Assembly (NCBI RefSeq): GCF_003334305.1 | Contig: NZ_QOWS01000011.1 | Origin: Escherichia coli | Lineage (GTDB): Bacteria; Pseudomonadota; Gammaproteobacteria; Enterobacterales; Enterobacteriaceae | Reading direction: 5' to 3' (one strand) | Length of the DNA: 64,000 nucleotides | Shown: positions 12,901-53,306 of the stretch, one piece after another | Position numbering within the stretch: position 1 is the stretch's first letter | Layout: the number at the start of each line of letters is the position of its first letter | Translations under genes and position numbers: made by a program | The notes under the pieces: generated by a model | Told to the model about the DNA's origin: nothing | The model's database searches: none | The model's input: the letters and a program-made list of their open reading frames with translations, nothing else

Positions 12901-15900
12901 AGCGTAAATGTTGTGGTACGGCTCCAGCGCTCAAGGGTGGCGGCAAACAGCGTGAGCAGCGCGGCAGACGGTGTGACGCCTTGCTGCTGCCAGCGCTGTT
13001 TCACGGCCTGCCATTCTGTCTTGCCGATCGTCGATTTGAAGGTGGTGAAGTGTGGCGTTTCCGGGGGCGTCTCAACCACCGGCAGCTCTGGCGCTAAGGG
13101 CAGTTGCGGCAGTTTTTCCTGCCAGTAATCCCAGGCATCGTGCCATGCCGATGTCTGTCGGCGCGCCTGTTCAGCCATCACATAATCACGGAAGGTAATA
13201 GCGAGCGGCGCCAGCGTTTCACCGCGCCAGACCTGCGCCAGGTCGTCCATCATGACTTTAAAACTCTGCACATCAAACTGCAAAAGGTCGAGGTTCATAT
13301 GCAGACGGTAATGGCAATCGTCGATTTCGCTGACCACCAGCTCAAAAAGAGGCCACTGGTCGGCAGGCAAAACGCGATAGCTCAGTTCATGCCGCCGTTT
13401 TTCCAGCGCGATGCGCTGTTCTTCCGGGGAAAGCGCGCGCAGATCGTCACGCGGGATGTGATACTCCGGCGTTGTCGCCAGGATTCGCTGCTGCCCGTCG
13501 GCATCAACCACCATACGCAACATATCGTGGCGTGCGATGAGCTGGTTCCATGCTTTCTCCAGTATGGCGAGATCGAACTCATCGTGGCGTTTATCCCACT
13601 CAAACAGGACGTGACAGGCGACGCCGCCATAGCCAATGAGGTGGGTTCGCCCCAGCCAGTAGGCGTGCTGAATGGGCGTCAAAGGGAAGGGCGCATAACG
13701 CTCGTCGGCGTCGTGCCGCAACACTTCCGGCTGCGAAGCGGCAGGCGTCGCCTCTGGCTTAGAACAGATAAGCTGCGTGAGTCCATGAGGAGACAGATCC
13801 TGCCACGCCCGTTCCGCATTGATGCGTACGCCCAGGTAGTGCTGAATATCGCTACTGAGTTCAAGGAAGAGCAGCGAGTCCATGCCGAGTTGCAACAGAT
13901 CCTGGTTTGGATGCAGTGACGCCGGATCGCTCAGCCTTAGCTGAACCGCAATCCGCTTTTTCAGCCATGCCATCACCGCTGTTTCATCGCTCAGGCTGCC
14001 GTTAAAGGCGTTGTCATCAGCAGGAGGAATGACCGGCGTTGCGGCTTTTTCTGTGGCGCTGATGTTAAACAGAGCCTGTTGTAACGGGGGCATTTTGTCG
14101 GTAAAAACGCGCATCGCCAGTCGCCACGGGGCGCCGCGCATCACCGCCTGTTCCAGGTGCCAGCAGCCTTCGGCATCGCTTAACGCGCCCATACCTCGGC
14201 TGGCGAGCGTCGCCAGCATTTCCGGCGTGGCCGCCCGACCGCTTTCTCCCCATGCGCCCCAGGCGACAGAGAGCGTTTTCGGCGCATCAAGGGTGGAAAA
14301 CTGCTGGGCCAGCCCGTCCAGGTAGCCGCAGGCCAGCGCATGGGCGCTCTGACCCGGCGCGCCGAGGGTGGCGGCAGCGGAAGAGTAGAGAATAAGATAG
14401 CGTCCGTCGTGGTTGCGCAGGGTTTGCAACAGCTGGCTTGCCGCCTGCGCTTTTACCGCGAAAACGGCAGCCAGCTGGTGGTCATCAAGCTCCTGCAAGG
14501 GCGCGTCAGCCAATACGCCAGCGGCATGAATCGCTCCGGCAATGCCGCCGTTGGCCGCCAGATCGTCAAGAACCGTGGCCAGTTGCCCGGCATCGCCCAC
14601 ATCACAACGGCAGACGCGCGTCTGCCCGCCCTCCACGTCGCGTAGCCATGACTCATCCACGCGCGGCGCCAGCAGGGCGATGCGTCGCGCCCCTTTTTCT
14701 CTGAGCCAGTTCACGGCAAGGCGGCCTAATCCGCCAAACGCTCCGGTCACCAGATGCCAGCGGCTATCGCCGGTAAACACGTTTGCCGGTAATTCAGCGG
14801 CGCATCCCGTATTGGGCGACAGTGAAGGAAGCCAAAGGGTGTCACCCCGTGCGGCGAGCCAGCGCTGTGATAGTGAGACTGCACTCAACCCTTGATGCAG
14901 CGTTTCCCACGGGGTGTTTTCGGCGAGATCGATGGCGGCAAGCAACCGTTCCGGCTGTTCGTTGGCCGCGACGCGAAGCAAGGCCCATAGCGCGTGATGG
15001 GATGCAGAGAGTGCTTCATTTTCCTCGACTCGCCACGCGCGGCGAGTAACCACAATCAATCCGGCTGCGCTGGCGGTGAGCGCTGCTATCACTTTCTCCG
15101 CTAAGGCCAGCGTATCCTCGCTCTCCTCAACAATCATCAGTCGTGAAGAGGCGTGCGGATCGTGAATGATGCCGTATTGCGCCAGCTCGTCGCTGCGCGC
15201 AAGCGTACCGGCGCTGAAGCTAAAGGTAAGCGGATGGTCAATGCTGGCGACGTTGAGGGGCGTCCAGCGCCATTGATAATGCGTTTGCGGCGCAGGAAGA
15301 GGCGCGGCGGGCGATAGCGGCAGCCACTCGCCAGCAGGATGACGGGCTTCAACGCGCATCTGACCGCGGGAAAAGGCTTCGTTTTGCCAGCTTAAGCGAA
15401 CCTTCCCTAGCCACTCCGGGGCGGCGACGGGGGGCGGTTCCACAGGCAGAGCGTCGCCATGACGCTGTGAAAGCAGACGCCAGGCCTCCTGCCAACGGGC
15501 GTTAAACCGTTCGGGCTGACCTGCGCAATCAGACCAGTCGGCGAGATAATCACCGTTATCCGTCAGCGCCTGCCCCAACACGGGTTCTGATGGCGCGGTG
15601 AATGTTACGGCGCTAACCGCCTGACCGGGCAGCGTGGCGAGAATGATATGTTCGCTCATCCCGGCGGTCGGGCTGCCATCCTGCGGTAGCCACGCCACTT
15701 TGCTGAATCCGGCGTGGCGGCACTGTTGTTGCCACTGAGCGGTGGTGAGGAATAACTCACCTTCGCGGGCGTCGAGATCCTGTAGCGGAAGAACCAGCGG
15801 GCCGAAAACGAAGTCAAACAGACGCATTGGCTGGGTGATTTCGCGCATCAGCAGGCGCCCGCCCGGCTTGAGCAGGGGGCGCAGATTATCGAGCGTGCGG

Positions 15901-44482: not shown

Positions 44483-44793
44483 TATGTATTCCCTTGTGAT
44501 TATAATCTTCATGAATATATCAATAAGTGCCGTTATCCAAAAAAAAGCACATTTGGATACTATTCTATGAAGTTCATTTTATTTTAAGGATTACATGTAA
44601 CAAATGTATTTAAAAGATTTCAAAGTGTTTCTAATATATTTAATATAATTCAGGATTATGAATTCTGAATATAAACATTCATGAAGATTATAAATGTATA
44701 TCAATAAGTTATGAGTTGAACTGAAAGATAGGGAGTATCAATGATCGTTGCGCTAAACGGCTGGTGTGATCACGCGCACATTAATGAAGGCAT

Positions 44794-45030: not shown

Positions 45031-45414
45031 TTGACTGGCTCATTCAATGTGGAAAAATGTGATTTTTATCACATAATAGTACTAAGTCTGAATTTTCCGG
45101 GTTATCTCAAAATGGAATACGGTTCGACAAAGATGGAAGAGAGACTCTCTCGCAGCCCTGGTGGCAAACTGGCTTTGTGGGCTTTCTATACATGGTGTGG
45201 CTATTTCGTCTGGGCAATGGCGCGTTACATCTGGGTGATGAGCCGGATCCCCGATGCCCCCGTGTCGGGATTTGAAAGCGATTTAGGCTCTACCGCGGGA
45301 AAGTGGTTAGGGGCACTGGTCGGATTTTTATTTATGGCTCTGGTCGGGGCATTGTTAGGCAGCATTGCCTGGTACACCCGACCTCGTCCCGCACGTAGCA
45401 GACGCTATGAATAA
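45031..45414 (+). CDS. yedR: Small inner-membrane protein
   Basis: 127-aa ORF with two hydrophobic segments; alternative starts at GTG 45049 or ATG 45112. Confidence 0.75.
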   Translation: MTGSFNVEKCDFYHIIVLSLNFPGYLKMEYGSTKMEERLSRSPGGKLALWAFYTWCGYFVWAMARYIWVMSRIPDAPVSGFESDLGSTAGKWLGALVGFLFMALVGALLGSIAWYTRPRPARSRRYE

Positions 45415-50500: not shown

Positions 50501-53040
<2,540 letters not shown>

Positions 53041-53219
53041 TTACCAGGATGATTCTCAAAACAGCACAAATTATCAAAGATGATTTTTTCGGGAGCGATC
53101 CCGTTGACGCCAGAGCCACCAAGGGGTGACGCGCGTCACATTTCTATTCATAAGTAGCGTTAATCATTCATATCACGAATATTTTCTTGTCAGCGAAAAA
53201 AATTGCGGATAAGGTGATG

Positions 53220-53306
53220 AACACATCAGATTTCCTGGTGTAACGAATTTTTTAAGTGCTTCTTGCTTAAGCAAGTTTCATCCCGACCCCCTCAGGGTCG
53301 GGATTT
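53220..53306 (+). ncRNA. dsrA: DsrA small regulatory RNA
   Basis: AACACATCAGATTTCCTGGTGTAACGAATTTTTTAAGTGCTTCTTGCTTAAGCAAGTTTCATCCCGACCCCCTCAGGGTCGGGATTT matches DsrA as I remember it; three stem-loops with a terminal hairpin plus T-run on the plus strand and no plus-strand CDS upstream. Confidence 0.85.

Follow-up and report, generated by a model that had tools for sequence, protein, structure and literature searches.

A perfect palindrome between the divergent genes yedP and dsrA of Escherichia coli as the probable inner part of a single upstream CRP site

Introduction

The classical class I positions of sites for the cAMP receptor protein (CRP) are -61.5, -72.5, -82.5, and -92.5, to which -41.5 is added if class II promoters are included, and upstream sites of this type include that of lac at -61.5 as well as those of araBAD and ansB near -90 to -93. 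Among the genes for small RNAs, the CRP site of spf overlaps the promoter, and that of cyaR occupies a standard activating position.

The locus considered here lies between the divergent genes yedP and dsrA and was analysed within a 64-kb stretch of E. coli DNA (the window), whose first base is position 1 of all coordinates given below. A perfect palindrome in this region had been put forward as a candidate binding site for a dimeric regulator, which proved right, the regulator being the CRP homodimer according to a ChIP-seq peak in enterotoxigenic E. coli (ETEC) and Footprint-seq in K-12. The palindrome is very probably the inner part of a single CRP site that would serve as a class-I-type upstream element for the divergent pair. 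CRP binding at the site is already known from ChIP-seq (2015) and Footprint-seq (2026), and the site, as one of several hundred catalogued CRP sites, is nothing new by itself. Its remaining value is that of a test case. DsrA has long been thought to have LeuO as its sole transcriptional regulator, with a paper of 2016 naming LeuO as the only known regulator of dsrA; direct CRP input to DsrA, if true, would connect the RpoS and H-NS circuits with catabolite signalling.

The Palindrome and Its Neighbours

The two genes that frame the region are the following.

52207–53022, minus strand: yedP, an open reading frame of 271 amino acids with its ATG at 53022; identical DNA is named yedP by RefSeq
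53220–53306, plus strand: gene of the small RNA DsrA (Rfam RF00014, 102.5 bits, E = 7e-20)

Both neighbours had been named correctly in the original prediction, as borne out for yedP by the open reading frame together with the RefSeq annotation of identical DNA and for DsrA by the Rfam family. The same annotation describes the yedP product as a HAD-type mannosyl-3-phosphoglycerate phosphatase-related protein. The region between the divergent genes comprises 198 bp. Within it, the claimed perfect palindrome of 14 bp, GTGACGCGCGTCAC, was recovered at 53126–53139, where it is the sole copy within the window even if up to two mismatches are allowed. The distances of about 105 bp to the yedP start and about 80 bp to the DsrA 5' end that had been proposed are likewise accurate, since the palindrome, measured from its near edges, is 104 bp away from the yedP ATG and 81 bp away from the 5' end of DsrA. 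With 100% identity, the 501-bp segment that surrounds the site recurs in several complete genomes, and altogether it has a match in 5,341 of 5,426.

Perfect palindromes of at least 14 bp occur seven times in the window, as against a mean of 5.4 expected from a Markov-1 simulation of 64 kb, and 99.5% of the simulations contained at least one of them. Palindromes of this kind are thus found at the chance rate, and the symmetry alone is no evidence of function. The longest perfect palindromes of the window are two of 18 bp, GGCAGACGCGCGTCTGCC at 14609–14626 and ATCCAGGCCGGCCTGGAT at 25476–25493.

Match to the CRP Motif and Published Binding

The palindrome and its flanks can be resolved into the following elements, none of which is assigned to a strand.

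53125–53140: 16-bp core of the cAMP-CRP site, GGTGA-CGCGCG-TCACA, centred at 53132.5 and based on weight matrix, ChIP-seq, and Footprint-seq
53125–53129: left half-site GGTGA, with the outermost base mismatched to the consensus TGTGA
53130–53135: spacer CGCGCG of 6 bp, not sequence-specific, which in this lineage completes the perfect palindrome
53136–53140: right half-site TCACA, a perfect consensus match, followed by TTT at 53141–53143 as in the 22-bp consensus

The 14-bp palindrome is the inner part of the 16-bp core, which is obtained by adding one base on each side. Nine of the ten half-site bases match the consensus, the half-sites are inverted, and the spacer measures exactly 6 bp. Likewise, the extended site aggGGTGA-CGCGCG-TCACAttt departs from the consensus aaaTGTGA-N6-TCACAttt by a single mismatch, which affects the least important outer base. 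Each CRP subunit reads one GTGA/TCAC half-site, and the six central bases are left unread. The proposal of a dimeric-regulator site in the divergent region therefore stands with regard to kind and place; its extent has to be revised, as the functional unit is a CRP site of 16–22 bp, GGTGA-N6-TCACA plus TTT, rather than the 14-bp palindrome, the inner bases of which are not conserved.

For scoring, a symmetrised CRP weight matrix was derived from 106 other sites of the ETEC ChIP-seq table, with the present site left out. On this matrix the site reaches 13.1 bits, the median of the 106 bound sites being 13.0, and it ranks third among the 63,985 positions of the window. Three 16-mers of the window score at least 13.1 bits, as against 0.7 expected per 64 kb, and thus the match to the CRP matrix, unlike the palindromic symmetry, exceeds chance. 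The two stronger matches, TGTGATTTTTATCACA (45058–45073, 19.1 bits) and TGTGATCACGCGCACA (44765–44780, 14.6 bits), are, by sequence, the counterparts of two entries, (yedR) and yedS, among the novel high-affinity CRP sites tabulated in the Footprint-seq study (PMC12871828).

Occupancy in vivo follows from published data for ETEC H10407, in which a high-confidence CRP ChIP-seq peak at 2201816 with the site GGTGACGCGCGTCACA was assigned to ETEC_2057/yedP (Haycocks et al., 2015, Table 1; PMC4287617); this 16-mer is identical to that of the window. Binding in vitro is documented for the K-12 allele by Footprint-seq with purified CRP, where the entry at 2025391, aaTGTGAcgcacgTCACCcct, is listed for dsrA/yedP with a Kd of 6.3 nM (Wang, Stringer and Wade, 2026, Table 1; PMC12871828). 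According to the K-12 sequence, which was read directly, this entry represents the same site with the spacer CGTGCG and differs from the window in the spacer only. Its motif centre, NC_000913.3:2025400.5, lies 9.5 bp from the published footprint centre, which is within the resolution stated by the authors (PMC12871828).

Promoter Geometry and the Target of the Site

The promoters to which the position of the CRP site can be related are listed below.

53187–53215, plus strand: dsrA core promoter, read from the sequence, with the -35 hexamer TTGTCA (53187–53192), a 17-bp spacer, and the -10 hexamer TAAGGT (53210–53215)
53049–53077, minus strand: predicted yedP promoter with the -35 hexamer TTGATA, a 17-bp spacer, and the -10 hexamer AATCAT; a weak call of a consensus scan with one match against 0.7 expected

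TSS-seq data assign dsrA a transcription start with 694 reads that is located 3 nt inside the annotated 5' end (Kim 2012, supplement). The annotated DsrA 5' end, AACAC..., is found at 53220 and the TSS-seq start coincides with its fourth base, 53223, which shifts all upstream positions by 3. Relative to the annotated DsrA +1 the CRP site is centred at -87.5, a value that does not agree in phase with the classical class I positions. Only if the TSS-seq start is used does the centre move to -90.5, a near-fit, which is close to the upstream CRP sites known at -90 to -93.

On the opposite side, the predicted yedP promoter would lead to a start at about 53042 and to a CRP position of about -90.5, and an alternative candidate -10 hexamer, GATAAT at 53075–53070, would place CRP at about -70. 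With regard to the yedP start, the supplement of Kim 2012 offers only a start with 2 reads located 464 nt upstream, which is not credible, and the Cappable-seq and SMRT-Cappable-seq supplements contain nothing for the region. A literature search on yedP regulation yielded nothing beyond two CRP tables (PMC4287617, PMC12871828), and no demonstration of a regulatory output for yedP or dsrA was found in the literature consulted.

With little glucose and a high level of cAMP, CRP at the site would act on one or both of the divergent promoters as a class-I-type element lying upstream, with the bound protein presumably contacting the C-terminal domain of the RNA polymerase alpha subunit. We infer yedP to be the preferred target with about even confidence, because it is the gene of a sugar-phosphate phosphatase and possesses a weak promoter with a poor -35 hexamer for which no credible start was found.

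An effect of the site on dsrA, as claimed by one preprint, is possible and is suggested here tentatively. This preprint of 2025 includes DsrA among the small RNAs that are regarded as directly CRP-regulated and describes CRP, DsrA, and rpoS as a coherent type-2 feed-forward loop, with Northern blotting carried out at 30 °C (bioRxiv 10.64898/2025.12.22.696124). This typing of the loop implies that CRP represses dsrA. It is rather unlikely that dsrA is even the main target, with CRP at about -90 modulating DsrA, presumably by the repression just mentioned, cAMP being tied in this way to RpoS and H-NS translation and yedP being a bystander. In its favour, the Footprint-seq table names dsrA as an associated gene (PMC12871828), the preprint lists DsrA with a loop type of repression, and the distance of -87.5 to the DsrA +1 is fixed in all Escherichia. 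Against it, the site is located 54 bp upstream of the -35 hexamer, which does not allow for repression by occlusion. In addition, the blocks of the dsrA promoter, which are invariant in Escherichia, are conserved across genera, including those without the CRP site. Furthermore, in the work of Repoila and Gottesman the minimal dsrA promoter was reportedly sufficient for its regulation, which also counts against dsrA as the main target. The preferred reading continues to be an upstream CRP site with yedP as the favoured target.

Conservation Across Escherichia and Other Genera

Conservation across the Enterobacteriaceae had been proposed as a check for the palindrome. A DsrA-anchored pattern search with one genome per species provided 90 loci, in 57 of which yedP is found in divergent orientation about 195–215 bp upstream of DsrA. 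The CRP site reaches 13.1–17.6 bits in the representatives of all six Escherichia species and is always centred at -87.5 from the DsrA +1. GTGA and TCACA are invariant in eight Escherichia lineages, and the first base of the left half-site is T, which corresponds to the full consensus, in Escherichia sp. MOD1-EC7003. The spacers found in Escherichia comprise CGAAAG (E. albertii), CGGAAG, CGCGGA (E. whittamii, strain E1V33), CGCGCA, and CACGCA. The alignment of the eight lineages was evaluated by columns.

Half-sites: 9 of 10 columns invariant
Spacer: 1 of 6 columns invariant (Fisher p = 0.008 versus half-sites)
Rest of the intergenic region: 106 of 181 columns invariant (Fisher p = 0.054 versus half-sites, borderline)

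The evolutionary signature of CRP sites, i.e., constrained half-sites around a free spacer, is thus present within Escherichia only. In the 79 DsrA loci from outside Escherichia no CRP site was detected, the best scores having a median of 4.0 and a maximum of 8.3 bits, which cannot be distinguished from shuffled sequence (median 4.2, 95th percentile 9.2). In these other genera, the aligned position holds unrelated sequence. The outcome of the check is therefore divided: the site is kept throughout Escherichia, and none of the other sampled genera, Salmonella, Citrobacter, and Enterobacter among them, possesses it. As binding has been shown experimentally, the absence elsewhere marks a genus-specific site and does not refute it. 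Moreover, the CRP site is missing in genera that keep the arrangement and spacing of yedP and dsrA, and consequently it is not needed for the basic expression of either gene.

The same distribution bears on the question whether CRP binds here without any regulatory consequence, perhaps with a minor architectural role in DNA bending, which is considered unlikely. Such a silent site would agree with its absence from all other genera with the same gene arrangement, with the off-phase position of -87.5 from the annotated DsrA start, and with the fact that no effect on yedP expression is documented; besides, the very preprint that claims regulation points out that a response to cAMP need not follow from a confirmed CRP site (bioRxiv 10.64898/2025.12.22.696124). 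Against a silent site stand the half-sites, whose position is unchanged in eight Escherichia lineages despite the turnover of the spacer between them. Likewise, CRP binds this intergenic site with high affinity (6.3 nM), and most or all intergenic high-affinity CRP sites are argued to be regulatory by the authors of the Footprint-seq study (PMC12871828).

Building on the preferred reading of a regulatory upstream CRP site, a further-reaching scenario would be an innovation of Escherichia, in which the site, almost midway between the DsrA start (53220–53223) and the predicted yedP start (about 53042), controls both promoters from about -90. In this case cAMP would act through DsrA on RpoS and H-NS translation in Escherichia and not in Salmonella or Enterobacter, and yedP would have been rewired away from the RcsAB-type box found upstream of it in other genera. 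The scenario in its entirety is improbable to much the same degree as a silent site.

Other Conserved Elements of the Region

Three neighbouring features, namely a block around -124, an RcsAB-like element, and a repeat of Enterobacter and Lelliottia, seem better conserved between genera than the CRP site does. The first of them is contained in TTTTTCGGGAGCGATCCCG at 53085–53103, which holds the longest invariant run (53085–53098) between yedP and dsrA in Escherichia. The core of this block, tGGnAnCGATCCCg, forms an imperfect inverted repeat with GATC and is located at about -124 (-123 to -126) from the DsrA +1 in Escherichia, Salmonella, Citrobacter, Enterobacter, Lelliottia, and Leclercia, and at -113, i.e., one helical turn less, in two Citrobacter loci. 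The distance of the core to the yedP ATG mostly amounts to 71–91 bp, with extremes of 64 and 111 bp. In its strict form, it was found in 28 of the 57 loci with yedP and in 4 of the 29 without, the latter four having the end of dgcQ at about -180 to -215. This block looks like a better cross-genus candidate for a regulator site than the CRP palindrome.

Closer to yedP, an element resembling the RcsAB box (consensus TAAGAATATTCCTA) occurs at 53045–53058 of the window and at the homologous position in loci L007–L091, 23–42 bp upstream of the yedP ATG. It shows no or one mismatch in 13 of 55 loci and at most three in 29 of 55, as compared to 1 of 275 random pieces, and the E. coli copy, CAGGATGATTCTCA, is degenerate with four mismatches. 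In other genera yedP is possibly a member of the Rcs regulon, and in Escherichia the gene may have been rewired. The third feature is a different inverted repeat, e.g., tatGTTATTGCGGATAACAaaa, which is present at -87.5 from the DsrA +1 in Enterobacter and Lelliottia (L007, L027, L036, L048, L086). This repeat at the position of the Escherichia CRP site scores 0.7–5.1 bits for CRP.

In addition, 29 of the 86 loci having at least 260 bp upstream of DsrA contain no yedP within about 1.4 kb upstream of dsrA, so that the pairing of yedP and dsrA is not universal in Enterobacteriaceae. The loci without yedP include those of the Citrobacter freundii group, Klebsiella, Kluyvera, Cedecea, and Trabulsiella (L003, L012, L025, L037, and others). 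In seven of eight checked loci without yedP, dgcQ reaches to about 180–350 bp from the DsrA +1, and no DgcQ match was obtained in L003.

Variation Within E. coli

Spacer alleles were counted by exact 34-mers in complete E. coli genomes, with the common ones differing at the central CpG (53132–53133).

CGCGCG: 2,190 genomes, central CG, perfect palindrome
CGTGCG: 1,467 genomes, central TG, including K-12 and O157:H7
CGCACG: 1,601 genomes, central CA

Rarer spacers, e.g., CGAGCG with a central AG, are found in about 50 further genomes. A 76-bp query centred on the site matched 5,308 E. coli genomes, of which about 41% possess the perfect palindrome and about 58% feature CGTGCG or CGCACG in place of CGCGCG. 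The half-sites are unchanged in 12 aligned E. coli sequences (ten sampled genomes, the window, and K-12), and the two central bases are the sole common polymorphisms of the site. About 99% of the 5,308 genomes agree in the 32 bp around the central CpG. The CpG itself, which is not under constraint, shows a transition polymorphism that is either recurrent or ancient. As the six central bases are not read by CRP and drift freely, the perfect 14-bp symmetry is a lineage-specific accident, and the case illustrates how a perfect palindrome can mislead, because only the outer 4–5 bases of each arm are functional.

This variation leads to the rejection of a reading in which the palindrome is an operator read over its full length by some dedicated dimeric protein different from CRP. 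Perfect inverted symmetry within a divergent control region would suit such a protein; its presence here is very improbable, since the inner bases vary among E. coli genomes and give way to different ones elsewhere in Escherichia, with only the CRP half-sites being fixed, since perfect 14-bp palindromes occur at the chance rate in the window, and since CRP binding already accounts for the site.

A role as RNA hairpin, terminator, or attenuator on one strand is practically negligible and was rejected, although a simple scan calls the sequence terminator-like with a 5-bp stem, a 4-nt loop, and the tail ATTTCTATTC, as the hairpin attains only -6.2 kcal/mol (z = -0.64 versus shuffles) with a poor tail, is not used in the minimum-energy fold of the minus strand, is not read into by any gene on the plus strand, and has invariant arms, hence no compensatory changes and no covariation.

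Comparison With Known CRP Systems

The site resembles the class I type sites of lac, araBAD, and ansB in its architecture of TGTGA-N6-TCACA with an unread 6-bp spacer, in its A/T flank, its nanomolar affinity, and its intergenic location. It differs from them in that the phase from the annotated DsrA start (-87.5) is not classical and that the promoter on the yedP side is a predicted one. A distance of about 90 bp from a start is shared with CRP sites of the ETEC ChIP-seq study, whose commonest distances are about 40.5 and 92.5 (PMC4287617). Moreover, the arrangement of one CRP dimer site in a short divergent region with both neighbours listed is likewise known from ygcW/yqcE, garP/garD, and ycfQ/bhsA (PMC4287617, PMC12871828), from which the present pair is distinguished by having a small-RNA gene as one of its members. 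In this respect it is comparable to the genes of Spot 42 (spf), CyaR, and McaS, in which a CRP site is located upstream of the gene of an Hfq-dependent small RNA, CRP dependence of DsrA being claimed in the preprint (bioRxiv 10.64898/2025.12.22.696124). Unlike in spf and cyaR, the CRP site is situated about 90 bp upstream, and in contrast to Spot 42, CyaR, and McaS, the control of DsrA is dominated by temperature and LeuO.
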